Of a stretch of DNA of 55,225 nucleotides, positions 1 to 34,200 are shown piece by piece. A program made the position numbers and the translations under genes. Numbering within the stretch: position 1 is the first letter of the stretch; every line of letters starts with the position of its first letter. This DNA is from a virus. Lineage: Duplodnaviria > Caudoviricetes. The notes beneath the pieces are model-generated. The model ran no database searches, was not told the DNA's origin, and worked only from the letters and a program-made list of their open reading frames with translations. The stretch is from positions 1 through 55,225 of the IMG/VR virus record IMGVR_UViG_3300020473_000034, one strand, 5' to 3'.

Positions 1-165
1 GAGTATGCTGCTAATGCTACCGCATGTGAAGAGTTCCTATATGTGTTCACTTTAGATCATACATGGGAGTGCTATGCAATCAATCATACTTATGATGATG
101 ATTGGAATGTTATAGACACTAACATAGAAGGAAGAGAAATCCCATCTGAAGTGCCAGCAGAATAA
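1..165 (+). CDS. Partial (5'-truncated) hypothetical cyanophage early protein, C-terminus ...EEFLYVFTLDHTWECY...EVPAE
   Basis: Frame 1 is open from base 1 to TAA at 163-165. The stop lies inside the first palindromic promoter element. Confidence 0.7.
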   Translation, partial: EYAANATACEEFLYVFTLDHTWECYAINHTYDDDWNVIDTNIEGREIPSEVPAE

Positions 166-208
166 CTGGCACACTCGTCCTTGAAGCATGACGTTAAACT
201 GCTATACT
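151..208 (+). promoter_or_regulatory. Early promoter element copy 1: palindrome GTGCCAG-cagaataa-CTGGCAC, TTGAAG -35, TGcTATACT -10
   Basis: Perfect 7-bp inverted repeat at 151-157/166-172. TTGAAG is at 181-186 and TATACT at 203-208. Confidence 0.8.
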
Positions 209-213
209 ATAGA

Positions 214-328
214 AGTTGAGGCAAGGGTTCAATAATTTTGGATACGGCATACCAACACCTTATACCCCTCTATGGGTGAGGTCAATGCGAAAGATGGTAC
301 ACTCCTTATATTATTACTTGCTTCAACT
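214..328 (+). ncRNA. Putative structured ncRNA A (long rod-like hairpin starting at the predicted TSS)
   Basis: AGTTGAGGCAAG (214-225) pairs with CTTGCTTCAACT (317-328) with one G-U. Inner helices are AATAAT/ATTATT, TACCA/TGGTA, ACCT/AGGT and ACCC/GGGT. No convincing ORF. Confidence 0.6.
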
Positions 329-379
329 GCTCTAATCTCCTTTGGTAGTTTCAGGATTAGGGGCGATAGGAAACTACCA
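329..379 (+). ncRNA. Putative ncRNA B: H-type pseudoknot
   Basis: Stem 1 is CTCTAATC (330-337) with GATTAGGG (355-362). Stem 2 is TGGTAGTTTC (343-352) with GAAACTACCA (370-379), a perfect 10 bp interleaved with stem 1. Confidence 0.6.
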
Positions 380-466
380 TGATAGGCAGTTAGGTCTAAA
401 GATGCTTTGACCTCTGATTCACTTATGATGATTTAAGTCCGTACTGCAATTACTAACTGCCTATCA
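380..466 (+). ncRNA. Putative ncRNA C: multibranch RNA with a 14-bp closing stem
   Basis: TGATAGGCAGTTAG (380-393) is the exact complement of CTAACTGCCTATCA (453-466). Internal hairpins lie at about 393-412 and 421-438. Confidence 0.6.
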
Positions 467-475
467 CCATTATTT

Positions 476-547
476 CAGGGCAAGGATCTATGGTTGTCTC
501 TGTTCAGCAGAGAAATTACGTCCTGTAAGTCCCATTTTGTAAACCCT
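476..547 (+). ncRNA. Putative ncRNA D / 5' leader structure
   Basis: Hairpin TCTCTG-ttcag-CAGAGA (497-513) is enclosed by weaker GGG..GGA/TCC..CCC pairings. The stretch is non-coding and GC-richer than its flanks. Confidence 0.4.
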
Positions 548-560
548 AGACACATTTATT

Positions 561-689
561 ATGTCAGCACCAGTTCAATCAGCAGTATCTCCAAACTTTG
601 CAGAGTTCCTATTGGACAATGCAGTAGATGGAAATGAAATCCTAGCAGTCCTTGATGATATTGCAGAGGTGAGTGATACTGCACTATGA
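561..689 (+). CDS. Small acidic hypothetical protein (42 aa, MSAPVQSAVSPNFAEFLLDNAVDGNEILAVLDDI...)
   Basis: Manually translated ATG..TGA that ends right at element copy 2. Confidence 0.7.
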   Translation: MSAPVQSAVSPNFAEFLLDNAVDGNEILAVLDDIAEVSDTAL

Positions 690-691
690 TT

Positions 692-750
692 GTGACAGTA
701 CATTAAGATACACACCAAACCCCCGAAAGGGGGTTTTTTATTGGTATAAT
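692..750 (+). promoter_or_regulatory. Early promoter element copy 2 with embedded hairpin/terminator
   Basis: GTGACAG-tacattaa-GATACAC, then AAACCCCC-gaaa-GGGGGTTT plus a T tract, then TGgTATAAT (745-750). Confidence 0.8.
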
Positions 751-9980: not shown

Positions 9981-10382
9981 ATGTCTACTAAGTATATCCC
10001 GGAAGTAAATGATTACGTGATTTGGAATAGACCTAATGGAGATATTGATGAAGGTTGGATATATTTTATTGGTGATATTCCCGAAGTTAAAAAAGGTTTT
10101 CCTACTCGTGATCGTTACCTTACTATAGAAATAGGAACGAAAGATAAGAACCCTTGTGTATATACAAGTGGCAAACCAATGTTACATAAGAAGCATCATA
10201 TTTGCCTACTATGTTATGAACAGTGCTGGAAAGAGTTGGTATTTGTTAAAAGAAGAAAGAGTAAATTAGACGATACGATAATACTAACCGCCGAAGAATT
10301 GTCTGTGGAAAAGTATAAACAATCAGATGATAATAGTGTTGATATGTATAAGTCACAAGAGCACAGATATGAGGATGTGTGA
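9981..10382 (+). CDS. Hypothetical protein (YIPEVNDYVIW...EGWIYF)
   Basis: ORF track. Confidence 0.75.
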   Translation: MSTKYIPEVNDYVIWNRPNGDIDEGWIYFIGDIPEVKKGFPTRDRYLTIEIGTKDKNPCVYTSGKPMLHKKHHICLLCYEQCWKELVFVKRRKSKLDDTIILTAEELSVEKYKQSDDNSVDMYKSQEHRYEDV

Positions 10383-10578
10383 TAACAATCGATTTGAAGA
10401 TTTATTCGTTAAATATCATTGAAACGGTATAATCTGATACATAAAATGTTAAAAATAAGGTTTTAAATACCTTTATAAATATACATCTGTTTATTATAGT
10501 TTTCCACATAGTTGTTAAAAAAGGGGGTGTAATCTGTGGATAAAGTGTTAATTAACTGTGGAAAAGTATTGTGGAAAA
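10304..10578. other. Cluster of five DnaA boxes with an AT-rich tract (candidate origin or DnaA-binding locus)
   Basis: TGTGGAAAA at 10304, 10557 and 10570, TTTTCCACA at 10500, TGTGGATAA at 10535. AT-rich stretch at 10441-10499. Confidence 0.6.
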
Positions 10579-10657
10579 AGTATTATATAGCGTTGTAATA
10601 TGATTTAATTAGTGTTATAAACGTCTTGTAATCTGCCGAGTTGATGCAACCTTTGCG

Positions 10658-10686
10658 AGCATAATATGAGGAAGGCAAGTTGTCAA
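10658..10686 (-). promoter_or_regulatory. Minus-strand sigma70 promoter TTGACA-17-TATGCT pointing into the DnaA-box cluster
   Basis: TGTCAA at 10681-10686 and AGCATA at 10658-10663 on the + strand, with a 17-bp spacer. Confidence 0.6.
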
Positions 10687-10784
10687 GTATCAGGGACGAT
10701 TTTTCAGCAATTCTTAACATTTAGCAACGCAAATACATATATACTATTATGAGTAAATAAAAACACTAAGTAACACTATATGTG

Positions 10785-10813
10785 TTGCAATATTCTGAGG
10801 TTTATGTTATAAT
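10785..10813 (+). promoter_or_regulatory. sigma70 promoter TTGCAA-17-TATAAT with extended -10
   Basis: Consensus match upstream of the ORF at 10837. Confidence 0.7.
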
Positions 10814-10836
10814 AACTCTATAATCACAGGGGAATT

Positions 10837-10980
10837 ATGAACGATTATGATGCCGAATTCGTGTGGGATTATGATAACTCATGCCATGATTTTCTTGAAG
10901 AAGATTCACAGTATGATGAAGATTATGCAAGGTTCGATGATAACAACTATCAAGAACTTGCCTATCGTCATTATGCATAA
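10837..10980 (+). CDS. Very acidic, Tyr-rich small protein (47 aa)
   Basis: Manual translation MNDYDAEFVWDYDN...ELAYRHYA, with an AGGGG RBS. Confidence 0.65.
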   Translation: MNDYDAEFVWDYDNSCHDFLEEDSQYDEDYARFDDNNYQELAYRHYA

Positions 10981-11096
10981 AGGCACGTAAATTTGGTCTT
11001 ATAGACTAACAACAATATAGGCACGATTAGGGCACGCTAAGTATAAACAATTGCGTGTTAGATTGTACTGCGTAGAATTATAAGAACGTCGGGACG

Positions 11097-11125
11097 ATTA
11101 TATCACAAAGTAGAAAGAACTGCAA
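11097..11125 (-). promoter_or_regulatory. Minus-strand promoter TTGCAG-17-TATAAT (extended -10), no downstream ORF
   Basis: CTGCAA at 11120-11125 and ATTATA at 11097-11102 on the + strand. Divergent from element copy 10. Confidence 0.6.
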
Positions 11126-11133
11126 GCGAATCT

Positions 11134-11192
11134 GTGTGACTTTATAAACTGGCACAGGACATATTGCAATGCGTTCAGTAATAGTGTAATAT
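11134..11192 (+). promoter_or_regulatory. Early promoter element copy 10
   Basis: GTGTGAC-tttataaa-CTGGCAC, TTGCAA at 11164-11169, 17-bp spacer, TAATAT at 11187-11192. Confidence 0.75.
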
Positions 11193-16182: not shown

Positions 16183-19100
16183 ATGATACAAACAGGATTT
16201 GAAAGTAGAGTAAAGATTCAAGATATTATATCGAATCAACTTCCAAATTATATTTTGGATGAGAGTCCTCTTACCTCTGACTTTCTTAAACAATATTATA
16301 TTTCACAAGAATATCAGGGTGGTCCTATCGACCTTTCTGATAATTTGGATCAATATTTAAAGCTTGATAATTTAACTCCTGATGTAATAGTCGATTCAAC
16401 AACATTATCAGAAGATATTAGTAGCACAGATTTAACAATAACAGTATCGGATACAAAAGGATTTCCGAATAGTTATGGATTATTGAAGATTGATAATGAA
16501 ATTATTACATATACAGAAAAAACATCTACTACATTTACTGGATGTGAACGTGGATTTAGTGGTATTACAAGTTATCATCAATCTTTAAATAGTGAAGAAT
16601 TAATATTTTCTACTTCAGATGCTGCAAGTCATAAGAAGGATTCAAGTATTCAAAATTTAAGTTCTTTATTTCTTAAAGAATTTTATAAAAAAACCAAAAG
16701 AACATTTACTCCAGGATTAGAAGATTCCACTTTCACTTCAGATTTAGATGCTGGTAATTTTATAAGAGAAGCAAAATCTTTATATGATACAAAAGGAACG
16801 GATGAATCGTTCAGAATACTGTTTAATATTCTTTATAATGAAACTCCAGATATAATTAATCTTGAGGAAAGATTAATTAAACCATCAACCTCAAAGTATG
16901 TTAGAAGAAGAATTGCTGTTGGGGAGGTAATTCAAGGAAATCCTACAAAATTAAAAGGGCAATCAATTTTTAAGAGTAAACTTAATAATACTGATATTAA
17001 TGTTTCTGTATCAGAAGTAGAAGCTTTTGTCAGAACTGGTATAGGAACTTATTATAAATTTGGATTATTCATTGATAATAGTGGATCTGATGAAATTTCA
17101 AATACGTTTAATATTATTCCAAACTCAAGAGTAATTGGAAATGTATCTGTTGGTTCTTCAATTATTACTGTAGATTCTACCGTTGGATTTAGTACTTCAG
17201 GAACTTTAATAACTGGAGATAACACATCTATTCAGTATACAAGTAAAACAATAAATCAATTTTTAGGTGTAAGTGATATTACTTCTGATATTAAATCAAT
17301 GGATAATGTTAGAAGTGATGATTATTATTATGGATATGAGGATGGTGATATTACTAAAGAGGTAAGATTAAGATTTACTGGTGTTCTGTCAGAATTTGTA
17401 CAAGACGGAAAACTAATTGTTGATGAAGGTGATATTATTGGGATAAAAAATATTGGAGATAAAATTGATAATCCAGAAAATAATTCAACTTTTAAAGAAA
17501 TATTTGCAAATTCATGGATTTATAATAGTAGTTCCTCATATAAACTAAAATATGATCCACTTCAAGCTACATCTGTAACATTTTTTAGTCCTGTAGATAG
17601 ATCTAGCTTAAAATATGGTGATGATATAGAAATTGTTGATGATGGAAGTAAAGATATTGTATATCCAACACCTACTAGTGATTTACCATATGTTAGTCAA
17701 GAACTTGAAAATGGTGAAGTTGGAGTTAATTTATCGAATTATACTCATACTTTGGGGGAAAATAGTCATCAATCATTAAGAAGAAAACTAAAGACGGCAA
17801 ATAGTTCTAATACACCAATACAATTTGGTAATGATAATGTAACATCAGATGTTCAAAATGTATATGTAAAAGATGATGTAGCATACGTAGCATCAAATTC
17901 ATTACCATCATATAGTTCAATAGGATCTTTTCCATATAATGAACAAATAACAGTTAATATTAGAACTTCAACTCTAGATTTTGATGGTTCTGCTGGTGGT
18001 AAATTGGAGGATATAATTGATGTTAGTAGTGATTTATATTCTACAATATCTTTTGAATCTCCTCATCCATTTAAAAATGGAGATAAAATTTATTATGATC
18101 CATCAGAATCTAGTTTAGTTGGATTAGAAACGGGAATTTATTATATTAAAAAAATTAGTGGTAATAAAATAAAATTATATGGTTCTACTTCTGGTATTTT
18201 AGGTGATAGGTATATTCCTCTTGGATATCCTCCTACAGAGTTTGATGGGAATCACAAATTTACATTATATTCCCAAAAATCTGGAGTAATTGGACCTCAA
18301 AAATTATTAAAGAAATTTCCATTAAAACAGAATCTTAAAAATGGTACATCAGTAGAAACACTTCCTGGTGGGACTGGTATGTTGGTTAATGGTGTTGAAA
18401 TTAATAATTATAAGTCATTAGATAAAATTCATTATGGTCCAATAAATTCAGTTTCTGTATTAAATTCTGGTGAAGATTATGATGTTATAAATCCACCAAA
18501 TATAACTTTATCATCACCAATTAGTACTGGTACAACTGCACTTATACATCCAGTGTTATCGGGTAAGATTGATAAAATTTTATTAGATAATCAAGATTTT
18601 GATATCGACTCTATTGTTTCTATAGGAATTACTGGTGGTAATAGTAGTGGATACGCTCTACAACCAATATTTAAGACAAGATATAGAGAAATTGAATTTA
18701 ATGCTAAAAAATCACCAGCTGGTGGTATTAATACTTCACCTGGTGATCCAGCATCATGTCAAATTACATTTTTATCAAATCACAATCTTACTACAGGTCA
18801 GTCTGTAGTCTATGAAAGTATTGGAAATCCAGAAGTTGGTGTTGGTATTGGAACTAGTACACTAGTTAATTTTTCAACCTATTATGTTGAAAGAATTAAT
18901 CAAGATACAATAAGACTTTATAATAGTCTTTCTGATGCTAATGGTACTTCATTGAATGGTATTGGTGGTATTGGAATTAATACAATTCATCTTAATGGTA
19001 GTGGGTCTGGTGTTCAAAGGTTTGTAGTTAATCAAAAAAATACATTATCAAGTGTCAAGGTATTAGATGGTGGTAATTATACAAATAGAAGTTTACTGGT

Positions 19101-22100
19101 GAAACCATCTGGAATTTCTACTTCTTTGAATAATATAACGTTTAAAAATCATGGTTTTAATAGTGGTGAATTAATTCAATATTCTGCTGTTGATGGAATT
19201 TCTAATAAAATTGATGGATTATCATTTGATAACCAATATTATGTTCTTAAAGATAATGATGATTCGTTCAGATTATGTGATGCTGGTATTGGTGGAACTA
19301 TTTCACAAAACTATATTTCTAGAAATATAGTTTCATTAGGTTCTACAACTGGAGTTGGATATCAACAATTTAAATATCCTGATATTAAAGGTTATTTGCA
19401 AATTATTAATAGTGATGGTGGACAAAATAATATTGAGGAAATTCCAATAACTCCTGTAATTAAAGGTTCGATTACTGATATTATACTTTATGAAAGTGGG
19501 TCTGGATATGGTTCAACTATCCTCAACAATATAAAGAGTCCAATAGTTACTATAAAGACTGGAAAAGATGCAGAATTAAGACCATTTTTTAATAATGGGA
19601 AGATTAGTGATGTTAGTGTTGAATATGGTGGAGAAGATTATTATTCATTACCTGATTTGGAGGTTGTTGATCCTACAGGAAGTGGTTCTGGAGCTGAATT
19701 AAGACCTATTATTACAAATTTAAAAATAACAGGTGTTGAAATTTCAAATGCAGGTATAGGATACTCATCATCTTCTTCAATTTTAATTAAATCTTCTGGT
19801 AAAAATTTAATATTAAAACCAGAAATTAGATCACTTACAGTTAATAACCAAGTTAGATTTAAGGAAGATAGTAAACATTATCAATTAGTAGATACAGAGA
19901 ATAATTTAAAATATACTGCATATGGATATAAACCAGATACATTTGGTGATTCTGTCACTGAAGGATCTAGTGCATCAAAATTAATTGGATGGGCATATGA
20001 TGGGAACCCAATATATGGTGGATATGGATTAGTAAGTCCAAATGAAAATCCATCAAATCCTAATGCACCTACAAAGAGAATGCAATCTGGATATACTTTA
20101 GATATATCTAAAGTTGTTGATAGGCCCATAGGATTTTCAAATGGTTATTTTGTTGATGATTATACTTATGATAATAGTGGTGATTTGGATGAATATAATG
20201 GTAGATTTGAAAAAACTGTAGATTTTCCTGATGGTGTATATGCATACCATGCAACGTTAGATGAAGATAATGATCCTACATTTCCTTACTTTATAGGAAA
20301 CAAATACAGATCTATTCCAATAGAAGAAAATCTTACAACTTTTGATCAATTATCATTCGATTTTAATACTTCTGGAGTTTTAAGAAATACTCTTCCATAT
20401 AAAGTTTCCGATATTAATGCGGATAATGATTTTATTGTCGAAAGTTCAGAAGTTGATACTCAAGAAATAGAAATTGAATCAATTTCAAGTGGAAATATAT
20501 CAGAATTTGATTTATTGAATAGGGGTTCTGGTTATAAAGTAAATGAAAATTTAAATTTTGACAATTCAGGAACTGAAGGTCAAGGATTGCTTGCAAGAGT
20601 TAGGTCTTTAGATGGTAAAGATTTGCAATCTATTAATACTGATATTGAAACTTATACTAATTCAGTATTAACATGGAATGATAGAAAATTAACTGTAACA
20701 GTTGATCCACATCATAATTTTAATGAGAATGATTATATTACAATTTCTGGAATTTCTACTGATTTATCTCATATTAATGGATCATATAAAGTTGGAATAA
20801 CATCATTTGTTTCAAATACAATATCAACTATTGCTGCATCACCATCAGCTGGATTTACCACTGAAATATATGTTTCAAGAATACCAACTGTTTCTATTGG
20901 AAGTAGTATACAGATAGGTTCTGAAAAGATGAAGATTCTGAATATATTTGAAAATCTGAATGTTCTTAGAGTAAAAAGAGGTAATAATTCTAGTGATTAT
21001 ACAGTAGAAATTCCAGAAAATAGTAGAGTAGAGTTTTTAACAAATTCTTTTAAAATTGATGAAAAAGTAGATTATTTTGATTCTTCTATTTCGGATAAGA
21101 TTTATTTCAACCCATCTAAGTCGGTTGGTGTGGGTGTAGATGATGGAACTACTCATTCAGTAGTATTTAATTTTGCAGGTAATGATATTGTAAGAAATAT
21201 ACCCATAAAACAATTATATATTGAAAATCATCCATTCCACAACAATCAAAAAGTTAATTTAACTGTTCCTAGTGGTTATGGTAATGCTAATAATTTTGGA
21301 AATGTATCAATTTCAACGAATAAAACATCCACACAATTTGATTTACCAACATCTGATTTATATATTGTCAATAAAGGTATTAATACTATAGGAATTAAAA
21401 CTGGAATTGGTACAGCTAGTGATGGATATGAATATGAAGAGGTTTATTTCCGTAATATACACAGCATGGATGATGATAATTATTTACTAGAAAGTGCTGA
21501 TGATAAACAGGTTTTATGTAAAGCTCAAAGGATTAGAACAGTAGTATCTGTTTCTACATCACATAATTTAACCAATAATGATAGTGTTTCTTTAGAAGTT
21601 AAACCTAATATTTCTTCTGGAATTGGATCTGATGTAAATGTAGAAGTAAAAAGAGATATTCTTACTGGACATTTATTAATTAATCCAATTACGTTTAGTA
21701 GTGGTGATATTAATCTTGGTAATAACACCATTACTTTGGGTAGTAAAGGAAGTAATTTAAAAACAGGAGATAAGGTTTTATATTCGGGTGATGCTACAGG
21801 ATTAACACCAGGAAATTATTATGTTTATAAAGTTGATGATAAAATAATTAAATTATGCCAAACATATTATGATGCAACTAGAATAGTACCTAATATTGTA
21901 GATATTACAGGCACTGGTTCTACGGGACAAATAATTAGCTTAGTTAATCCACAAATTCTTGCAACAAAAAATACTGATCTAGTTTTTGATCATTCAGATT
22001 CTTCATTAACTGGATATAATTTTAATTTATATTATGATCAAGAATTTAAAAATAGATTTGTTGGTACTGGTAAAACTTCATCATTTAATGTCTCTGCACA

Positions 22101-25100
22101 GTCATCAATAACTACTGTAAGTTATGGTAGTAGTTTATCTAGGAAATTATATTACAATATAGAAAAATCTGGGTTTATTTCCACTTCTGATACAGATGTT
22201 ATTAATAATTCAGAAATAGTATATATTGATAGTGTATATCATGGTGATTATAAAATTTCTGGGGTTGGAAATACAGATTTTACAATATATTTAAATAAAA
22301 TTCCAGAAAAATCTTCATATACTTCAACACAATGTGATTTACTTAAATATACTACTACTTCAAAATCTTATAGTGGTCCTATTGATAAAATAGAGATAAT
22401 TTCTGGTGGGTCTGGATATAAAAAAGTTCCAACTTTCGTTGGTGTTGGGTCTACATCAATCGGTAAGGATGCTGTAATAATACCAAAATCTAAAAATATA
22501 GGTAATGTATCTAAAATTAGAATAATTAACCAAGGATTTGAATATTCATCAGATAAAACATTAAATCCAACTGCGTATGTTTCACCAATAATTGAGTTGA
22601 AAAATTCAAATTCAATTGGAATAGTTACTGTAACTTCTGGTGGAAAAAATTATCTATCATCACCAAATATTGTTATTGTTAATTCTGAAACTAGAAAGTT
22701 AATTGATAGTGGATTCTTAGAACCAAAAATGATAGATAATTCTATTTTAGATGTAAATATTGTTGAAAAACCCCATGGACTTCCAGATTCTACAGTAACA
22801 TTAAAAACAACAAATAATACTAATGGAATTACAATTTCTTCTGTAGATTCTTCAACTCCAGCAAGTGATACTGGATATACTGTAATATTAGTTACACCAA
22901 CACTTGGTTTTAAAGAAGCACCATTTAAGGCTGGGGATAAAGTATTTATTGAAGGTATTGAAAAATATGGTGTACTTGGTGATGGTTTCAATTCGGAGAA
23001 TCTTGGATATGAATTTTTAACAATAGAATCTATTGTAGGTGGAGATAATCCAAATCCATTTAAATTTACAGTTAGTGCTGTTGGATTAACAACAATGGTT
23101 GGTACTGCAGTTACAACACCAACAGGATTTACGGCAGTTATCCCAGAATCTGATTATCCAACATTAATTGCCACTCAATCTAAAGAAGGGTTTGATATAG
23201 GTGAATTTATTACAGTAAATTCTATAGACTCACAAATCAAAGTAACATCAAATGATGATTCATCTATTAAAGTTACTGGACTTGGTGTTGATGATTTATC
23301 TGTTGGTGATGTTATTCTTGGAAAAACATCAGGTAATAAAGCAACTATATCAAAAATTACAGAAAATCATGGTAAATATGAAATTGATTTTTCGTCTGTG
23401 AAGGATGTTGGTTGGATTGATTCGGTTGGAAGACTAAATGATGATAGTCAAGTAATACCTGATAATGATTATTACCAAAATTTATCATATTCTGTTAAGA
23501 GTTCAATTACTTGGGATACATTACAAACTCCAGTCAATAATGTCCTTCATACAAGTGGATTGAAGAATTTTGCTGATACTGGAATTACTTCAACTGCTTC
23601 TGTTGGTATAGGTTATTCTATTGGAACTACAATAATTAGAGATATTTTTGAGGAGAAGAGAGTTGATGAAATTCAAGGTGTTGATCTAGTTAGAGATACT
23701 GAGGTTACAGGTGATGTTGCTAGATTAATAGAATTTAAAAATATAAGATTATCTGATTATATTGCATGTTTAACAAATGAAGTATTTACATTTGATAATA
23801 TTAATCAACAGTTTTCAAATTTAGAAGATACTGAAACATATTATGTAGATCTTATGGATATACCTGCAGATGGTAGGTATCAAAATTTTATAGTTAGGGT
23901 TGAAAGTAATACTAATACTGGAATATCAACACAAGTTCAATTATCAGAATTGGTTCTGATAAATTCTTATCCATATTCTAATAATGATCAAAATGTATTA
24001 TTGGAAAAATATCAATTATTTAATTCTGATAATGATGGATTTGTTTCTGTTGAAAAAGATCAATTAGGAACATTTAAAATTGTTAAAGATGAATTAACTG
24101 CAGTAAATACTCTTAGATTTTATCCAAAAGAAAAGTTTAATGTTGACTATGATTTAAAAATTCTTAAAGGTGAATTTACAAATGTAGTTTCTACTGCAGC
24201 AACTGTTAAAGTTGGTCCGATTGACAACAGTATATTTGTTCAACAAGTTACTAGTGGATCTACAAATGATATTTTATCCGTTGGTATTACTAGTATAAAT
24301 TCATTCTTTGTTAATGCACAAATTGTTGATAAATCAACTGGACAATTAAATTTTGTTGAAGCTTATGTTACCCATAATGGTCAAGATAGTTTTATATCAG
24401 AATCATATATTGACTCTGAACCATCTATAATTTCATCAAATAGAATTGGTATTTTAACTTCGAATTTAGATTCTGGAACATTAAAATTGAGTTATGAGAA
24501 TGATACATCTACTGATGTTATTGTTAGATCAAAGGTTGTTGGTTTTGGTACAACTGGATTTATTACTCCAGAAGGACATACTGGTGTTGGAACATATAGA
24601 TTCCAGAATCCAGCAGAACCAGATGGATATGAAAGGTCTGTAATCTATCAAGGAATATCTACTAGTGGTGTAGGAAAGACAACTATATTAGGGATAAGTT
24701 CCTCTTTATTTAATTCTGCTACATCTATAGTAGAAGTTAGTATAGGATCATCCAAAGCAGTACATGAAGTATTGAGTTTACATGATGGTATAGATGTTTA
24801 TGTGCAACCAGCACAATTCTTGGCTGATAGTTCCAATAATTTGGGATTAGGTACTTTTGGTGGTGAATATGATCCTGCTAGTGGTGATTATGTGGTAAGT
24901 TTTTACCCTGATAACTTAGTAGGTGTAACAACAGTATCAATATTTAATAAGTGTTTTTATAGATCTATTGATAGATTTAATATTTCCGACACTTTAGTTT
25001 ATGGTAGTGGATATACTGAAAATTTAGATTTTAAATTGTATAATGCTATTAATGGATTTAGAATTAGTAAGAAAGATTTTGAATTAACTACAAATTCAAT

Positions 25101-28100
25101 ACCAGTATTCTCTAAAAAAGTTAATCCTAGTTTCGAATCAGATTTAGTTCTTTCTACAGGTAAATTTAAGGTTAATGATCACTTCTTCAGAACCAACCAA
25201 ACCTTAAGTTATGAACCAAAATCAACAATACTTGGTATTGGATCTACTGCAATGCAGTATATGTCTGCAGATAACATAATGGATACATTACCATCTACAG
25301 TCTTTGCTATAAAGAATGATGATAATACATTCCAAATTTCTACTACAAGAACTGGAACTGCTGTTACCTTTACAGGAATTGGAGAAGGAAATGCTCATAC
25401 ATTCTCTATGGTCAATCCAAATGAAAAATCAATAATAAGTATTGATGATATTGTCCAATATCCAATAACACCAACTCCAATATCTCACAAATTAAGATAT
25501 AATGATGGTGGTCAAATAGGTTTTGCTAATACTATTTTCTCTTTGAGTGGAATATCAACTATACTTGTTGATGATATAATAAAAATTGATAATGAGTATA
25601 TGAAGGTTATCAACGTTGGTGTTGGAACAACTGGTGCTGGACCAATCACACCAGGAATTGGAACATTCCCATGTGTAGGAGTTGAAAGGGGTGCTCTTGG
25701 TACTCTTTCATCTATACACACAAACGAGGCTGTAGTTGATAGATTTAAGGGTAGTTTTAATATAGTTGATAGCACTCTTTGGTTTGCTACCCCACCTAGA
25801 GGAAATCCTACATTAAGTATATTACCAAATGGGTTGAAATTCCCAACTTCTGATTTTAATGGAAGAACATTTTTAAGAAATGATTATACAACAAATGATG
25901 TATATGATGATATTAGTGATCAATTTAATGGATTAACAACCTCATTTACATTGACTGTAGGTGGTGCAAATACTATAGGTATTGGAACTAGTGGTGGAAA
26001 TGGAGTTTTATTCATAAATGGAATATTCCAAACACCAACAACAGACAATAATCCAGCAAATAATTTTAAAATTATAGAAACTGGTAGTGGTGCTACTGGT
26101 GTAACTAGTGTTGTATTCTCTGGCATAACATCCACAGATGGAACATTAATTAAATCTGAGTATGATATTAATAGAAATGAATTACCAAGAGGTGGAATTC
26201 CAATTTCCTTCGGTTCAACTACTGGTTCTGGATATGCACCTCTTGTTGGAGCAAATGTAAGACCTATCTTAGATGCTAGTGGATCAATTACAAGTATAGT
26301 TGGTGTTGCAACCACTGGGGCAGCACTGGGAGTACATACAGCAGTGTATGATAATACTAGTGGAATATTAACAGTTACTACTATTGTAGATCATCAATTA
26401 GTTGATGGTGGACATGTTGATGAGGTTAAATTATCTCGTTTAGGATTCACATGTCCATCTGGAAGTGGTATAACAACAAATTACTTCCCAAGTGGAGCAT
26501 ATGGAGATACATTCTCTATTATTGGTGTAGAAGATACTAATAAGTTTAGTGTCAATGTTGGAACAAGTACTATTCCACATACTTATGTTGGTGCTGGAGA
26601 TAGTTCTGGAACTGTTTTCCCATGGTATGGAGATCTTACATTAGGTTCTGGTTATAATGGTATAGTTCCTATTTCAGTAACAGTTAAAGATAGTGGATAT
26701 GATCATGAATTTATAAGTGCCACTAATAATGCTATTACTAAAACTACATGGAATGGTACTGGAATTACTCCTACAAATGCTATTTTTGATTCACTTTCTG
26801 GAATTGTTACGTTTACGGCAACTTCTCATGGCTTGGTTACAGGTGATAAAGTAGGTATTGCAACAGGGTCATTAACATTTAAGTGTTCTAAGGATAATTA
26901 CGCATCAGAACATAAGTATCCTCGTGGACCATTTACTCATCAGTTTGATAGTGCTGATGCTAATGCTGTTAATAACTCATTACAACCTATTGGTGCTGAT
27001 TACAACGCCCTAACAGGTGACATGGTATTGACATTTGCTTCTGCTCATAATATAAGTAATGGAGCATTTATAACAATTACTGATAATTCTATTAGATTTA
27101 AGTGTGCTAAAGATAATTATACAACAATACATAGTTATCCAAGATTATCAGATCCTGCATCTGGGTCTAATTTAACGGTTTCTAATGCAACTGCTAATGA
27201 TCTTACAGTTAATGTTGGAGCATCTAATACAAAAGAAGATCCAGTAACTGGTATTTTAACTACAGTTACTAAGTTAAATAATAATATCTTTAGTGTATTT
27301 GTTGGAAGTGCAGTTGGTGAAGATGCTAATATCACAGCTACTCCAAAAACAGTTAATACTCATGTATTTGATAGTGCAAATAGTACTTTAAGTAATTGTA
27401 TTTTCATTAATAATTGGAGTGGTTCAGGTGGTCAAAAATCAATATCAGGTGCTGCATATACTGCATCTACTGGAGAATTGATGTTAGATATTGGGACTAC
27501 AGGTATGCCTTCAGCAGGTTCAGATAAAGTTGGTATTAAGACTAGTTCTCTAGCATTTAGATGTAATCAAGATGATTATAATAGTGTACATAAGTATCCT
27601 AGAACAAGTGACCCAGTTAATGGAACATTAATTGATATTACTAAGGTGGATACTAACACAGGAATGATTTTTGTTAATGTTGGAAAATCCAATACAAATT
27701 GTGGTGGTGCGTTAGACTTTACAGTAGTTGGTGGTGGAACAAGTTATACCAATCCTAAGATATTTGTTACAGAACCTTCTTATGCTGGTTTAGGTATAAC
27801 AGGAGTTTCAAGAGTTGGTGAAGGTCCAACGACAGATACTGGTTTTGGACTGCGTTTGGATGTTGAAGTAGGTGCTGCTCAGACTTCTGGTATAGGATCT
27901 GGTTTTTATGAAATTTCTAATTTTGATATTACTAGAAGTGGATATTCATTTAAACGTGGTGATGTTTTCTCACCAATTGGATTGGTTACTGATAGAAAAT
28001 TATATGAACCATTTGAACAAGCAACTATTGAAGTTGATAATATCTACACTGATAATTTCTCAATGTGGCAGTTTGGAGAATTTGATTATATAGATTCAAT

Positions 28101-29577
28101 TAAAAATTACCAAGATGGTATAAGAACTAGATTCCCATTATTCTATAATGGATCAAAAATTAGTGTTGATGCTGATCCTAATTTTGATAGTATTCTTGCA
28201 AATGTAATGTTTGTTGTTGTAAATGGAGTTATTCAGCAACCAATAGAATCATATGATTTTATTGGTGGAGCATCTATAAACTTCACAATGCCTCTAGATC
28301 CTGAAGATAATGTTGCAATATTCTTCTATAAAGGAACAGATAATGAAGATGCTGTTGTATCTACAGGAACAACTGTTTATCTTGAACTTGGTGATACTGT
28401 TGAGATTTCAGGTATTGGAACTATTGCCGAACAGGATGATAGAATTATTAAGTCTTTAAATACATCAACTAGTTTAGAGACAAACTTATATACTAGTGTT
28501 GGTATTAATGATGATGTTTATAGACCAATAAATCTTATAAAACAAAAACAGGATAAAATAATTGATAGAGAATTTATATCCAAGAAAAGAGTTAATTTGG
28601 AACCATTAATTCTTCCAGCTGCAAAAATAATTAGTGATGTCACCACATCTAATACTACATTTTTTGTTGATAATGCACATTTATTTGATTATGAAGGATC
28701 AAGTTCACAATTTAGTGGAATAATTGTTTCTGGTAAAGAAAATCCATCTATACCATCTGCAACTGCAACCATTAATACTACAGCAACTACAGTAACATCA
28801 ATTTCAGTTACTGGAGGTTCTGGATATACTTCAGTTCCATCTGTTTCAATTTCTGCACCACCAGAAATTGGTGTTGGTATTGGAACTACTGCAACTGCAA
28901 CTGCAACCATATCTAATGGTACTGTAGACAATATTACAGTAACTGAAGTAGGACTTGGATATACAATCGCACCTAAAGTTTTAATTGAACCACCAGATTC
29001 TATAGATGAGTTGGTGAAATGCCCTACAGGAAGTAATATTACAGTTGAATCTACTTCAGGTATAATTACAGGAATAGGAACTACTACTGTTGGTTCATTA
29101 TTGGGGATCAAATTCTTTGCTAAGGGACCAACTGTAGCTTCATTTAATCCCATATCTGTTGGGAATCCAATTTATGTTTATGATACAGCAGTTGGAACAG
29201 GATTAACTTCAATGAATGTTGCTAATACTACTGCAGTTGGAATCGGAACTAGTTTTACTGATAATGTATATTCTGTTGCAGAATTTACTACTCGTGGAGA
29301 TGGTAATAATGAATTCCTTGGAATTATTACATGTGTGATAAAATCAGATACTAATGTAGTTGGTTTTGCATCAACTGGAGCAAGTATTAACGATCCTGTT
29401 GGATATTATTCTGTTGGAAAACTATCAGGATTTGATAGAAGTAGTTCACCAATTTCTATTGGTGTAAATGGATTAACAGTTGATGTAGGGTTAACAACAT
29501 ACCCAACATTACAAAGAAGAGGTGGTCCAGGAGATGATACTTGGAAACAAACTGGAGGTTTAATAACACCAGAATAA
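16183..29577 (+). CDS. gp7: Giant baseplate wedge initiator gp7 (4464 aa) with inserted repeat and YHYH-like domains
   Basis: Lies between gp6 and gp8. FLKQYYISQEYQGG N-terminus, KGTDESFRILF and DNDYYQNLSYSVKS..HTSG motifs. Confidence 0.85.
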   Translation: MIQTGFESRVKIQDIISNQLPNYILDESPLTSDFLKQYYISQEYQGGPIDLSDNLDQYLKLDNLTPDVIVDSTTLSEDISSTDLTITVSDTKGFPNSYGLLKIDNEIITYTEKTSTTFTGCERGFSGITSYHQSLNSEELIFSTSDAASHKKDSSIQNLSSLFLKEFYKKTKRTFTPGLEDSTFTSDLDAGNFIREAKSLYDTKGTDESFRILFNILYNETPDIINLEERLIKPSTSKYVRRRIAVGEVIQGNPTKLKGQSIFKSKLNNTDINVSVSEVEAFVRTGIGTYYKFGLFIDNSGSDEISNTFNIIPNSRVIGNVSVGSSIITVDSTVGFSTSGTLITGDNTSIQYTSKTINQFLGVSDITSDIKSMDNVRSDDYYYGYEDGDITKEVRLRFTGVLSEFVQDGKLIVDEGDIIGIKNIGDKIDNPENNSTFKEIFANSWIYNSSSSYKLKYDPLQATSVTFFSPVDRSSLKYGDDIEIVDDGSKDIVYPTPTSDLPYVSQELENGEVGVNLSNYTHTLGENSHQSLRRKLKTANSSNTPIQFGNDNVTSDVQNVYVKDDVAYVASNSLPSYSSIGSFPYNEQITVNIRTSTLDFDGSAGGKLEDIIDVSSDLYSTISFESPHPFKNGDKIYYDPSESSLVGLETGIYYIKKISGNKIKLYGSTSGILGDRYIPLGYPPTEFDGNHKFTLYSQKSGVIGPQKLLKKFPLKQNLKNGTSVETLPGGTGMLVNGVEINNYKSLDKIHYGPINSVSVLNSGEDYDVINPPNITLSSPISTGTTALIHPVLSGKIDKILLDNQDFDIDSIVSIGITGGNSSGYALQPIFKTRYREIEFNAKKSPAGGINTSPGDPASCQITFLSNHNLTTGQSVVYESIGNPEVGVGIGTSTLVNFSTYYVERINQDTIRLYNSLSDANGTSLNGIGGIGINTIHLNGSGSGVQRFVVNQKNTLSSVKVLDGGNYTNRSLLVKPSGISTSLNNITFKNHGFNSGELIQYSAVDGISNKIDGLSFDNQYYVLKDNDDSFRLCDAGIGGTISQNYISRNIVSLGSTTGVGYQQFKYPDIKGYLQIINSDGGQNNIEEIPITPVIKGSITDIILYESGSGYGSTILNNIKSPIVTIKTGKDAELRPFFNNGKISDVSVEYGGEDYYSLPDLEVVDPTGSGSGAELRPIITNLKITGVEISNAGIGYSSSSSILIKSSGKNLILKPEIRSLTVNNQVRFKEDSKHYQLVDTENNLKYTAYGYKPDTFGDSVTEGSSASKLIGWAYDGNPIYGGYGLVSPNENPSNPNAPTKRMQSGYTLDISKVVDRPIGFSNGYFVDDYTYDNSGDLDEYNGRFEKTVDFPDGVYAYHATLDEDNDPTFPYFIGNKYRSIPIEENLTTFDQLSFDFNTSGVLRNTLPYKVSDINADNDFIVESSEVDTQEIEIESISSGNISEFDLLNRGSGYKVNENLNFDNSGTEGQGLLARVRSLDGKDLQSINTDIETYTNSVLTWNDRKLTVTVDPHHNFNENDYITISGISTDLSHINGSYKVGITSFVSNTISTIAASPSAGFTTEIYVSRIPTVSIGSSIQIGSEKMKILNIFENLNVLRVKRGNNSSDYTVEIPENSRVEFLTNSFKIDEKVDYFDSSISDKIYFNPSKSVGVGVDDGTTHSVVFNFAGNDIVRNIPIKQLYIENHPFHNNQKVNLTVPSGYGNANNFGNVSISTNKTSTQFDLPTSDLYIVNKGINTIGIKTGIGTASDGYEYEEVYFRNIHSMDDDNYLLESADDKQVLCKAQRIRTVVSVSTSHNLTNNDSVSLEVKPNISSGIGSDVNVEVKRDILTGHLLINPITFSSGDINLGNNTITLGSKGSNLKTGDKVLYSGDATGLTPGNYYVYKVDDKIIKLCQTYYDATRIVPNIVDITGTGSTGQIISLVNPQILATKNTDLVFDHSDSSLTGYNFNLYYDQEFKNRFVGTGKTSSFNVSAQSSITTVSYGSSLSRKLYYNIEKSGFISTSDTDVINNSEIVYIDSVYHGDYKISGVGNTDFTIYLNKIPEKSSYTSTQCDLLKYTTTSKSYSGPIDKIEIISGGSGYKKVPTFVGVGSTSIGKDAVIIPKSKNIGNVSKIRIINQGFEYSSDKTLNPTAYVSPIIELKNSNSIGIVTVTSGGKNYLSSPNIVIVNSETRKLIDSGFLEPKMIDNSILDVNIVEKPHGLPDSTVTLKTTNNTNGITISSVDSSTPASDTGYTVILVTPTLGFKEAPFKAGDKVFIEGIEKYGVLGDGFNSENLGYEFLTIESIVGGDNPNPFKFTVSAVGLTTMVGTAVTTPTGFTAVIPESDYPTLIATQSKEGFDIGEFITVNSIDSQIKVTSNDDSSIKVTGLGVDDLSVGDVILGKTSGNKATISKITENHGKYEIDFSSVKDVGWIDSVGRLNDDSQVIPDNDYYQNLSYSVKSSITWDTLQTPVNNVLHTSGLKNFADTGITSTASVGIGYSIGTTIIRDIFEEKRVDEIQGVDLVRDTEVTGDVARLIEFKNIRLSDYIACLTNEVFTFDNINQQFSNLEDTETYYVDLMDIPADGRYQNFIVRVESNTNTGISTQVQLSELVLINSYPYSNNDQNVLLEKYQLFNSDNDGFVSVEKDQLGTFKIVKDELTAVNTLRFYPKEKFNVDYDLKILKGEFTNVVSTAATVKVGPIDNSIFVQQVTSGSTNDILSVGITSINSFFVNAQIVDKSTGQLNFVEAYVTHNGQDSFISESYIDSEPSIISSNRIGILTSNLDSGTLKLSYENDTSTDVIVRSKVVGFGTTGFITPEGHTGVGTYRFQNPAEPDGYERSVIYQGISTSGVGKTTILGISSSLFNSATSIVEVSIGSSKAVHEVLSLHDGIDVYVQPAQFLADSSNNLGLGTFGGEYDPASGDYVVSFYPDNLVGVTTVSIFNKCFYRSIDRFNISDTLVYGSGYTENLDFKLYNAINGFRISKKDFELTTNSIPVFSKKVNPSFESDLVLSTGKFKVNDHFFRTNQTLSYEPKSTILGIGSTAMQYMSADNIMDTLPSTVFAIKNDDNTFQISTTRTGTAVTFTGIGEGNAHTFSMVNPNEKSIISIDDIVQYPITPTPISHKLRYNDGGQIGFANTIFSLSGISTILVDDIIKIDNEYMKVINVGVGTTGAGPITPGIGTFPCVGVERGALGTLSSIHTNEAVVDRFKGSFNIVDSTLWFATPPRGNPTLSILPNGLKFPTSDFNGRTFLRNDYTTNDVYDDISDQFNGLTTSFTLTVGGANTIGIGTSGGNGVLFINGIFQTPTTDNNPANNFKIIETGSGATGVTSVVFSGITSTDGTLIKSEYDINRNELPRGGIPISFGSTTGSGYAPLVGANVRPILDASGSITSIVGVATTGAALGVHTAVYDNTSGILTVTTIVDHQLVDGGHVDEVKLSRLGFTCPSGSGITTNYFPSGAYGDTFSIIGVEDTNKFSVNVGTSTIPHTYVGAGDSSGTVFPWYGDLTLGSGYNGIVPISVTVKDSGYDHEFISATNNAITKTTWNGTGITPTNAIFDSLSGIVTFTATSHGLVTGDKVGIATGSLTFKCSKDNYASEHKYPRGPFTHQFDSADANAVNNSLQPIGADYNALTGDMVLTFASAHNISNGAFITITDNSIRFKCAKDNYTTIHSYPRLSDPASGSNLTVSNATANDLTVNVGASNTKEDPVTGILTTVTKLNNNIFSVFVGSAVGEDANITATPKTVNTHVFDSANSTLSNCIFINNWSGSGGQKSISGAAYTASTGELMLDIGTTGMPSAGSDKVGIKTSSLAFRCNQDDYNSVHKYPRTSDPVNGTLIDITKVDTNTGMIFVNVGKSNTNCGGALDFTVVGGGTSYTNPKIFVTEPSYAGLGITGVSRVGEGPTTDTGFGLRLDVEVGAAQTSGIGSGFYEISNFDITRSGYSFKRGDVFSPIGLVTDRKLYEPFEQATIEVDNIYTDNFSMWQFGEFDYIDSIKNYQDGIRTRFPLFYNGSKISVDADPNFDSILANVMFVVVNGVIQQPIESYDFIGGASINFTMPLDPEDNVAIFFYKGTDNEDAVVSTGTTVYLELGDTVEISGIGTIAEQDDRIIKSLNTSTSLETNLYTSVGINDDVYRPINLIKQKQDKIIDREFISKKRVNLEPLILPAAKIISDVTTSNTTFFVDNAHLFDYEGSSSQFSGIIVSGKENPSIPSATATINTTATTVTSISVTGGSGYTSVPSVSISAPPEIGVGIGTTATATATISNGTVDNITVTEVGLGYTIAPKVLIEPPDSIDELVKCPTGSNITVESTSGIITGIGTTTVGSLLGIKFFAKGPTVASFNPISVGNPIYVYDTAVGTGLTSMNVANTTAVGIGTSFTDNVYSVAEFTTRGDGNNEFLGIITCVIKSDTNVVGFASTGASINDPVGYYSVGKLSGFDRSSSPISIGVNGLTVDVGLTTYPTLQRRGGPGDDTWKQTGGLITPE

Positions 29578-31247: not shown

Positions 31248-34200
31248 ATGGCACAAAAAACAAATTTAAATATAAGTCCATATTATGATGATTTTGAATC
31301 TGATAAAAATTTTTATAAGGTTTTATATAAACCAGGATTTCCAGTTCAAGCAAGAGAATTAACTGGTTCTCAGTCTATTGTCCAAAATCAGATACAATCA
31401 TTTGGAGATCATATATTTAAAGAAGGGTCTGTTGTTATTCCTGGTGATATTGCATATGTTGGAAATTATTCAGCTGTTAAATTAAGTCCAGAAAATTATG
31501 GAACAGATATATCACTTTATATTAAAGATTATATAGGTAAGAAAATTACAGGAAGATCATCTGGAATAAATGCTACTGTTAAGCATGTTGCTTTACCAAA
31601 TACCGATCCTGTTGATGATGTAACAATTTATGTTACTTATACTAGTGCAGATAATAATAATCAAATAGGTTCATTTATTGATGGTGAACAATTAGTTTGT
31701 TCCGATAATATTAATTATGGTAATACAACTATAAATGCAGATACACCATTTGCTTCATTGATTTCTTCTGATGCAACTGCTATTGGATCAGCAGCATATA
31801 TCCAAAAGGGTGTTTATTTTATAAGAGGTTATTTTGTAAATGTTAGTTCTCAAACTATCATTTTAGATTACTATGGTAATGCACCATCTTATAGGGTTGG
31901 ATTAAAAGTAGATGAATTAATTGTTAATGCAAAGGATGATGATTCATTATATGATAATGCTAAGGGATTTAATAATTTTGCTGCACCTGGTGCAGATAGA
32001 TTAAAAATTAATTTAACTCTTGTTAAAAAGGTATTAGAAGATCAAGATGATACTGATTTTGTTGAATTATTAAGAATTAAGAATGGAAAAATTAAAATAA
32101 TTAATTCCAAAACAGATTATAATATAGTTAAAGATTGGATAGCAGAAAGAACATATGATGAATCTGGGGATTATACTGTAAATCCTTTTAAATTATCTGT
32201 ATTAAATTCTTTAAATGATAATTTAGGTAATGGTGGATTATTCTATAAAGATGAGAAAACAGACCAATTAAATACACCATCAGATAATTTAATGTGTTTA
32301 AAAATTTCTGATGGAAAAGCATATGTTAATGGGTATGATGTAGAAAAAACTGGAACTACTATAATTGATGTTGAAAAACCTAGAGATGTTGGAATTAATA
32401 GTACAGGAAGTGTTAATTTTAATATAGGAAGTGTTCTTAGGGTTAATAAAGTATCTGGTGTTATAAAGCAAGGAGGTCCAGTTCAATTATTTTCTGAGTT
32501 GGGGCAGCAAGGTGATATTATAGGTGTTGCAAGAGCATATGGTATAAATTTAAGAAATGAGGAATATAAGGATAATACAACTGTTTGGGATTTGAGGTTA
32601 TTTGATATACAGACAAATACACAAATCACACTTAACGAAGATGTTAATGCAACTCAATTACCAAATACTTCTTTTGTTAAGGGAAAGAGTAGTGGTGCCA
32701 GTGGATATGCTACGGCTGCTGGTTCTGGAAAAAGAATTGATTTAAATCAAACTACTGGAACTTTTTTTAAGGGGGAGCAAATACAAATAAATGGTGTAGA
32801 TTTTCCTAGAAGCATTGGTATATCTACTGTATTTGGTACACAAGGAATTAAATCTGTAAAACAACTATCTGTAGATAATTATCCAGAATTTACTGCAGAT
32901 TCACAATTAGATGTATTTGCACTTCCAAATGGTATTAGAAATGTTTCTATTGATGGGGCAGGTAAAGTAACTGCTGGTGCAAAGCAATTTAGTGGACTTA
33001 GACCAGGAGCTGTTGTAATATATAAAACATCTAGTGATGATATAACATACAATAAAGTTACATCTATAGATGCTGGTGGAACATCTCTTGAAATAGAAGC
33101 AATTACTCCAGATGTAGCAGGTGTTTTTGAAGGTGCATTGGGAAGCAATATTACAGTAGACATGTATGTTGGTGCACCAATAGTAAGAGGAAGTGGTAGA
33201 TTACACGCACCATTAGGTAATTTAAATGTTTCTACTGTAGATCTTTCAAATTCAAATATAAAAGTTACAAAACAATATAAACCAGGTGGTGCTCTTAGTG
33301 GATCTTTAACAGTTTCTATTTCCAATTTATCGGGAACTTATCCAGAAATTACTTCATCAAATTCAACCTTTGAATCTTTTGATGAAGAAAGATATTCATT
33401 ACATCATAGTGGTGGTACTATAGGTACAATTAATGAAGATACATTTGCCTATAATAATAGTGGTGATCAAATTGTTTTAAGTAATTTAGGAACTCCTAGT
33501 GGCACTAATTGGGTATTAAATGTCTCTGTTAAAAAGAATGGAATTCAAAGCAAAATAAAAGATTATAATAAGAGTAGAATGTTAGATGTTGTATATTCAA
33601 AATATGAAACATCTGGTGATGTTGCTATCGGTATAGGTGCTTCTACACTTGCAGATGGTCTTACATATGATCAAAATCAAAGATATGGATTAAGAGTACA
33701 GGATGAAAAAATATCATTAAATTGTCCAGATGTGGCTAAATTTATAGCAGTATACGAATCTATTGATGCTGAAAAACCAACTTTAGATCAGTTTAGATTT
33801 AGTAGTACTGCTGCTGTCCAAACAAATGCCGTTCTTGGTGAAAATATTGTTGGGTATAGTAGTAAAGCAATTGCTAGGGTTGTTGAGAAATCATCAACAG
33901 AAGGAAATACATTAGGAATTGTTTATTTAACTGGAGCACGTTTTAATGAAGGTGAAACAGTTAATTTTGAGGAATCAAATATAGATACTAATATTGAAGA
34001 AATAACTAATGGAATATATAAAGATCTTACAAATTCTTTCAAATTAGATAAAGGACAGAAGGATGAATATTATGATTATTCATCTATTGTTAGAAATGCA
34101 GGAGTATCTGAACCATCTGGTAGATTGTTAGTTATCTTTGATTATTATTCAGTTCCAAATGATGATGAAGGTGATCTATTCACAGCATTAAGTTATGATA

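Follow-up and report, generated by a model that had tools for sequence, protein, structure and literature searches.

Folded RNA modules tiled behind an early-type promoter in a T4-like cyanophage genome fragment, and their possible roles

T4-like cyanophages are among the sea's most abundant viruses, and little is understood of how their early genes are expressed. The stretch of DNA analysed here in full (55,225 nt, hereafter the window) is a fragment of an uncultured virus whose genes match those of T4-like cyanophages of Prochlorococcus and Synechococcus. Close to its start, positions 214-547 had been read in a first-pass annotation, made from the letters alone, as four back-to-back structured non-coding RNAs forming an early small-RNA operon. 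The locus raises the questions of whether this stretch is indeed structured non-coding RNA, whether its folds belong to any catalogued family, and what such an array could do at the head of a phage transcript.

As had been claimed, the stretch lies directly behind an early-type promoter, which is sigma-70-like, matches the consensus at 9 of 12 positions and carries the TG extension; its kind is taken as early ( Table 1 ). Transcription would start near 214-216, T216 lying 7 nt past the -10. In relatives with a recognisable -10, the first paired base of the leader helix likewise lies 7 nt past it in 26 of 35 cases, and the first helix opens at about the first transcribed base. The folded array is followed after 25 nt by a conserved ORF, which is represented by nine distinct protein sequences of 37-42 aa in related loci and matches no PHROG family. 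Because the array runs into this ORF and then into an intrinsic terminator, it is at least the 347-nt 5' leader of the mRNA that carries the ORF.

Table 1. Coordinates of the features at the left end of the window.
Feature	Position	Strand	Description
Homologue of PSSM2_070	1-165		Stop codon precedes the folded stretch
Sigma-70-like promoter	181..208	+	-35 TTGAAG (181-186), 16-nt spacer, TG-extended -10 TATACT (203-208)
M1	214..328	+	Three-helix rod: P1 214-225/317-328 (12 bp), P2 231-236/310-315, P3 250-255/294-299
M1 variable apical arm	256-293
M2	329..379	+	Classical H-type pseudoknot: S1 330-338/354-362, S2 344-352/370-378
M3	380..466	+	87 nt, hairpin-like; perfect 14-bp closing helix 380-393/453-466 (inverted repeat I3, 100% complementary)
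M4	476..535	+	Outer helix 478-480/531-533, P2 483-486/521-524, P3 hairpin 497-502/508-513
Conserved 42-aa ORF	561-689	+	Homologue of PSSM2_071
Intrinsic terminator	717..744	+	8-bp stem, T run

The surroundings of this unit show further repeated elements. The -10 of the next promoter (745-750) directly abuts the terminator, and repeat D4 has copies at 745-766 and 980-1001. At 717-766 and 952-1001, terminator hairpins are followed by a common TATAATA.AA.AGTAAACAACA promoter/start region, forming terminator-promoter cassettes of a PeSL-like kind. A start-codon context, TTGTAAACC...ACATTTATTATG, is repeated at 537-563 and 1395-1422 (repeats D7 and D11) in the absence of a Shine-Dalgarno sequence, and may be a translational operator. 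A TGGCACA box upstream of promoters is not enriched (6 matches versus 4.7 expected).

The absence of a convincing ORF from the stretch also held on closer analysis, since the ORFs within it reach at most 39 aa and none of them is conserved. Two of these, at 216-335 and 272-382, were considered as coding and rejected, given that the homologues of the first module (M1) have lengths of 76, 102, 107 and 112 nt, which differ by non-multiples of three, and that several homologues, read by eye, show stops or frame changes. Coding across the second module (M2) was set aside as well, its homologues carrying single-base indels.

All four proposed folds are present, including the 12-bp helix closing M1 and the 14-bp helix closing M3. 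The proposed pseudoknot corresponds to the two crossing stems of M2, which covary, and the fourth hairpin module (M4) comprises three helices. Two parts of the initial description needed amendment. M3 does have a perfect closing helix, but its predicted fold is an irregular rod that is not clearly multibranched. The folds had also been called independent, which is true of M1 and M2 in so far as each occurs alone elsewhere, but here the two are joined, the closing helix of M1 being the helix that abuts M2. The linkers between modules in the window measure 0-9 nt.

Folding z-scores against dinucleotide shuffles are -2.98 for M1, -4.19 for M3 (-3.92 on the - strand) and -1.42 for M4, and -0.58 for the nested fold of M2, nested folding being unable to see a pseudoknot. 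For the stretch as a whole they are only -1.96 (+ strand) and -2.19 (- strand), so that thermodynamics alone does not decide. In the covariation check that had been proposed, the collected homologues show compensatory changes in M1, M2 and M4, the structures of which are supported by covariation; for M3 no diverged homologue was found. Many cells hold G-U pairs and hardly any hold A-C, indicating that the + strand is the folded one. We are confident that the modules are real structured RNAs that have so far escaped cataloguing.

For M1, eight distinct sequences pair in 92.1% of cells, versus 27-45% when the partners are slid, and 10 of the 19 pairs are changed on both sides; in P2 of the window's own copy, a C-G pair is replaced by A-U. 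At the apical arm, copies have either a GNRA tetraloop, as in three related loci (L103, L004 and L315), or an insertion, and some of the insertions look by eye like another module, M6. By blastn, M1 was also found in a viral contig from a single cell; this copy has an internal deletion, and its order relative to M4 differs. A scan with 14-mers of M1 returned 119 loci, mostly chance matches, among them about five new true copies.

M2 belongs to the H-type pseudoknot class in that its strands follow the order S1-5', S2-5', S1-3', S2-3' and both helices are compensated. A word-anchored scan of IMG/VR recovered at least 67 instances that fit the family, 55 of them distinct, and 53 once two chance matches had been dropped. 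Among the matches listed, these 53 sequences are paired in 94.5% of cells, against 17-53% when slid; 11 of the 18 pairs are changed on both sides, and none of 500 shuffles reaches the score. Seven of the nine pairs of S1 are changed on both sides in this set, as are four of the nine of S2, three of these four corresponding to a register shift between 8-bp and 9-bp forms of the helix, which is a compensated indel. The same matches hold about 55 G-U cells, and 50 of their 51 unpaired cells fall at one conserved G.G position. The words used for the scan fixed parts of S2 and of loop 3, and a control model was built with S1 only. Applied to 100 loci chosen by M4 alone, it gave 16 further matches (13 distinct) that are 94.8% paired and in which S2 shows A-U to G-C and C-G to U-A changes. 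Throughout the sets examined, no variation was seen in the loops CCUU(U) and GCGAUAG; P-SSM2 carries GGCUAUAGG.

By blastn, M2 (324-379) is about 84% identical to an unannotated gap of Synechococcus phage ACG-2014f and occurs in 57 phage records, the hosts of which are only Synechococcus and Prochlorococcus. Carriers include P-SSM2, at a second locus (144,051-144,103) before PSSM2_175, and S-SKS1, which is not T4-like. In cellular genomes the M2 pattern gave five matches, three by chance and two apparently true on short MAG contigs that are probably viral; with a stricter pattern, cyanobacterial genomes gave no copy. A helix that abuts CUGC, P0, always precedes M2. P0 may be a minimal GUUGA-GAGA-UCAAC hairpin or a helix of other sequence, for example UCAAAAGG/UCUUUUGA; it may also be the helix that closes an entire domain, this being M1 in the window, whose P1 thus doubles as P0, and M7 elsewhere. 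Of 60 upstream 40-mers, 29 contain a helix of 5 bp or more that ends at CUGC, compared with a mean of 18.9 and a maximum of 28 in shuffled ones, an enrichment that by itself gives only modest support.

For M4, a scan recovered at least 96 instances, corresponding to 68 distinct 76-mers, and among the matches listed these 68 sequences are 97.2% paired, versus 41-60% when slid, with both sides changed in 7 of 13 pairs. The selection fixed the anchors TCTATGGTTG and AATTACG together with the first three bases of P3; the elements left free, GCAAGG, the UUCAG loop and GUAAGUC, reach a conservation of at least 90% among the matches listed, and the internal loops are conserved too. By blastn, M4 (473-532) is 96.7% identical to an unannotated gap of P-SSM2 (100% over 54 nt at 55980-56033), and it is found in nine cultured or deposited phage records.

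M3 is an orphan by comparison. A blastn search of 3.1 Mb of related loci gave a single 20-nt chance match, an 18-mer scan of the viral contigs of IMG/VR gave one match, also by chance, and the stem sequence has no further copy in the window. Overlapping 18-mers scanned against metagenome contigs gave six matches, five by chance and one true; this only other copy (locus L371) matches the array of the window over the approximately 420 nt compared. In relatives, continuous ACCACAUUAUUU-type linkers connect M2 with the module that follows, at the place occupied by M3 in the window, suggesting that M3 may be a recent insertion into the M2-M4 linker.

That the modules are separable is borne out by the relatives: M1, M2 and M4 appear there alone, reordered or nested in one another, and the genes or tRNAs that follow them are unrelated. 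M4 stands by itself right behind a promoter before various ORFs, or in the apical loop of M6, M7 or M9, and M1 also sits within M7. Stand-alone leaders of M4, M1 or M9 begin a few bases past a -10. In three relatives (L103, L004 and L205) a hairpin lies over the -35 region.

Five further conserved leader modules, designated M5 to M9, were noted in relatives (L002 1354-1495, 1563-1620 and 2230-2345; L049 7140-7570; L014 1950-2400). One of the stems of M7 accommodates an inserted M1 or M4.

Sequences of the modules are also present in RNA libraries. In assembled contigs of marine RNA libraries from three studies, M2 and M4 are present, as is M1 in its short GNRA form, DNA carry-over being possible. 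None of the contigs spans 408-451, inside M3, an absence that carries no weight for or against this module. Summed depths on these contigs range from 25 to 640 over M2 and M4 and from about 3 to 30 over ORFs; being summed over all relatives, they cannot rank the parts of a transcript.

Searches of catalogued families support the novelty of the folds. With the 4227 covariance models of Rfam 15, which include manA, wcaG, glnA, preQ1, SAM-II/V, HDV-like and pistol, the whole window gave no match at the families' gathering scores, in agreement with the statement of the first-pass annotation that the array matches none of the cyanophage manA, wcaG and glutamine-riboswitch (glnA) motifs. Nothing meaningful was found at E-values up to 10 on positions 100-800: within 214-547 only two minus-strand matches were obtained (scoring 12-19 bits where the gathering scores are 48-100; E 1.2 and 6), and the other three overlie the terminator region. 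ARAGORN found no tRNA or tmRNA gene in the 55,225 bases. Literature searches gave no description of the M1, M2 and M4 motifs; the supplements of a virus-wide catalogue (PMC10690425) may include them.

Some likenesses to known RNAs were considered for M2 and discarded. M2 contains GGCGAUAGGAAC, which presumably recalls the J4/2 region of the HDV ribozyme; a HDV-like (including theta) ribozyme is rejected because a single nucleotide separates the 5' strand of S2 from the 3' strand of S1 in 53 of 53 sequences, leaving no room for P3/L3. A putative likeness to coremin and exonuclease-resistant RNAs comes down to a common AAACUAC, which in M2 is a strand of a covarying stem.

Many copies of M2 lie just ahead of a tRNA. 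In the collected loci this holds for 32 of 71 copies, the tRNA being that for Arg in 26 and for Pro in 6; the gap measures 3 nt in 17 copies, 4 nt in 13 and 5 nt in 2. A further 37 have no tRNA downstream on the DNA examined, which in two of them is shorter than 80 nt, and in two the tRNA is further off; copies without an adjacent tRNA are followed by other modules, the start of an ORF or a second promoter. By contrast, none of 98 copies of M4 in the collected loci is near a tRNA. One ORF-free gap of ACG-2014f (127,938-128,413; L003 1440-1915) contains in succession a promoter, a small hairpin, M2, tRNA-Arg, a manA RNA and tRNA-Asn, the manA RNA (90 bits) lying 78 nt past M2 and between the two tRNAs. 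In S-SKS1 (L368 1130-1310), M2 lies between two tandem promoters, ahead of a hypothetical gene. Release as a unit is plausible only for those M2 copies that a tRNA follows, since RNase P would cut 3-5 nt behind them.

Several phage elements resemble the modules in part. The PeSL cassettes of T4-type phages are repeated and small non-coding cassettes with sigma-70-type early promoters located before ORFans; each stem-loop is a simple G/C hairpin that functions as a terminator and lies ahead of the promoter boxes, between or across them, or immediately before the start site (Arbiol et al. 2010, PMC2839356). The early sigma-70-type promoter, the variable regions and the modular shuffling are shared, whereas the modules of the window lie downstream of the start site, are multi-helix or pseudoknotted and have invariant loops and covarying stems; the window has the early promoter (181-208) and lacks a terminating simple stem-loop at or upstream of it (166-208). 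The tRNA cluster of T4 encodes the stable RNAs C and D (species 1 and 2), which are small, structured and co-transcribed with the tRNAs. M2 resembles them in the copies that precede a tRNA by 3-5 nt, where it too would be released by the enzymes that process tRNAs, but the window has no tRNA and a location in a tRNA cluster is found only elsewhere. A further comparison is offered by the putL and putR RNAs of phage HK022, promoter-proximal folded antiterminators that bind the transcribing RNA polymerase in cis; they are likened to the modules by position only, as a promoter-proximal fold in an early phage transcript. The manA and wcaG RNAs (RF01745, RF01761) are orphan structured RNAs of T4-like cyanophages found by covariation (Weinberg et al. 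2010, PMC2864571), and differ from the modules in their folds and in that their models give no match. The gene 32 leader of T4 and T2 contains an H-type pseudoknot that, according to a review, binds the gene's own product and serves one gene (Uzan and Miller 2010, PMC3014915). Compared by description, it shares with M2 the stacked stems near the 5' end of the leader, upstream of an unstructured A+U-rich stretch and a start codon; in contrast, M2 heads tRNAs and many unrelated ORFs. The modules are neither PeSL cassettes, nor T4 RNAs C and D, nor manA or wcaG RNAs, nor the gene 32 knot.

As to function, the reading that we favour, tentatively, is that of a cis-acting 5' leader which buries the 5' end of the transcript and shields it from host RNases. 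It is preferred because the first helix is located at the first transcribed bases and because the modules serve unrelated genes; their occurrence before many different ORFs and tRNAs points to a generic role on the transcript rather than to a gene-specific switch. In other bacteria, RNases E and J are dependent on the 5' end of their substrates. In cyanobacteria both enzymes are essential, according to one source (PMC8682795). Marine cyanophages would assemble such a leader from portable folded modules, shuffled and nested. In the window, a short early transcript would start near 214, carry the composite leader and the ORF, and end at the terminator. The leader would fold co-transcriptionally, with the 5' end hidden in a long helix and compact knots and hairpins exposed, and would shield early messages and tRNA precursors from RNases E and J of the host, in so far as these enzymes need the 5' end there too; the invariant loops probably bind a protein. 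Several observations fit this stabilising leader poorly. A plain stabiliser needs neither invariant loops nor a pseudoknot; M3 and M4, being 165-260 nt away from the 5' end, cannot cap it, and M4 is often nested; some phages have a second promoter directly behind M2; and M2 would not protect a mature tRNA, since RNase P should remove it from the copies that precede one. As the loops, the tRNA spacing and the internal modules are left unexplained by a leader alone, processed small RNAs, an action on the polymerase and a role in DNA shuffling all stay alive.

The operon of small RNAs initially proposed, in which modules would be cut out by RNase P, RNase E or a similar enzyme and act in trans as stable species, for instance by titrating a host RNA-binding, tRNA-targeting or defence protein, is a possibility of lesser weight. 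Processing of the tRNA 5' end would free M2 in the tRNA-adjacent copies, ACG-2014f keeps M2 in one ORF-free stretch with tRNA-Arg, manA RNA and tRNA-Asn, loops that stay invariant on covarying stems point to a specific partner that binds them, and the module sequences are present, as presence only, in RNA-library contigs of three studies. However, the array of the window continues into a conserved ORF with no terminator between, the 55-kb window has no tRNA, and the 0-9 nt linkers carry no recognisable cleavage signal. A broader version holds that about ten portable RNA domains (M1-M9), which marine cyanophages would graft to the starts of early transcripts and into one another's loops, are processed tRNA-style into abundant, stable small RNAs that capture host factors such as RNases, tRNA-targeting nucleases and defence proteins, with M2 as a partner of the tRNA-processing or tRNA-attacking machinery; taken as a whole it is rather unlikely, and if it were true, some of the most abundant viruses of the ocean would carry a toolkit of RNAs directed against the host. 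It is improbable that the 5'-proximal modules, above all P0 and M2, act in cis on the host RNA polymerase in the manner of HK022 put, letting it traverse structured tRNA arrays and early regions rich in terminators in a state that withstands pausing or termination. Such an action would suit the position of M2 at the very start of transcripts and at the head of tRNA arrays, its location between tandem promoters in S-SKS1 and relatives, and the terminators that punctuate the early region. Nevertheless, a strong terminator lies 170 nt past the array, where the transcript in the window seems built to end, and, since cyanobacteria are not known to have Rho, one common need for antitermination on untranslated RNA is removed.

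The modules are very unlikely to matter mainly as DNA, that is, as recombination seams or miniature mobile cassettes whose folds are incidental. Module order does vary among close relatives, modules are inserted into one another, terminator-promoter cassettes flank genes, and M3 resembles an 87-bp insertion with 14-bp inverted ends in a linker that is continuous in relatives. Yet pairing is kept by compensatory changes despite sequence drift, G-U pairs mark one strand, the pseudoknot is maintained and insertions in apical loops keep the host fold, all of which indicates selection on RNA. The conserved loops on covarying stems and the compact pseudoknot are also reminiscent of small aptamers, and one or more modules could in principle be ligand-sensing riboswitches for the downstream gene. 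This has the slimmest chance of all the readings weighed: there is no expression platform, a tRNA begins 3-5 nt past M2 in 32 copies, the downstream genes vary and are unrelated, M4 is often nested in other RNAs, and no Rfam riboswitch matches.

Whatever their role, M1, M2 and M4 are three RNA families absent from Rfam, with defined helices and invariant loops ready for probing. Long leaders are built here by combining and nesting RNA domains, one of which keeps a fixed spacing to the first tRNA of a tRNA array. Should the domains act by stabilising transcripts, by reprogramming the polymerase or by trapping host proteins, they would constitute a new RNA-borne layer of phage-host conflict; if they merely fold, they would still be useful markers of early transcription units and recombination seams.

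Further along the window, a TGTGGAAAAGTAT-type word occurs at 10297-10569 three times in direct and once in inverted orientation; the gap at 10383-10837, of about 455 nt, is AT-rich and holds no ORF of 60 aa or more, and the words look like iterons. At 11002-11100 there are two copies of a 28-nt repeat (71% alike) with the ends GGCACGATTA and GGGACGATTA, and a promoter-like site follows downstream near 11150. Two very long ORFs occupy the + strand, at 16183-29577 (4464 aa) and 31248-38825 (2525 aa).
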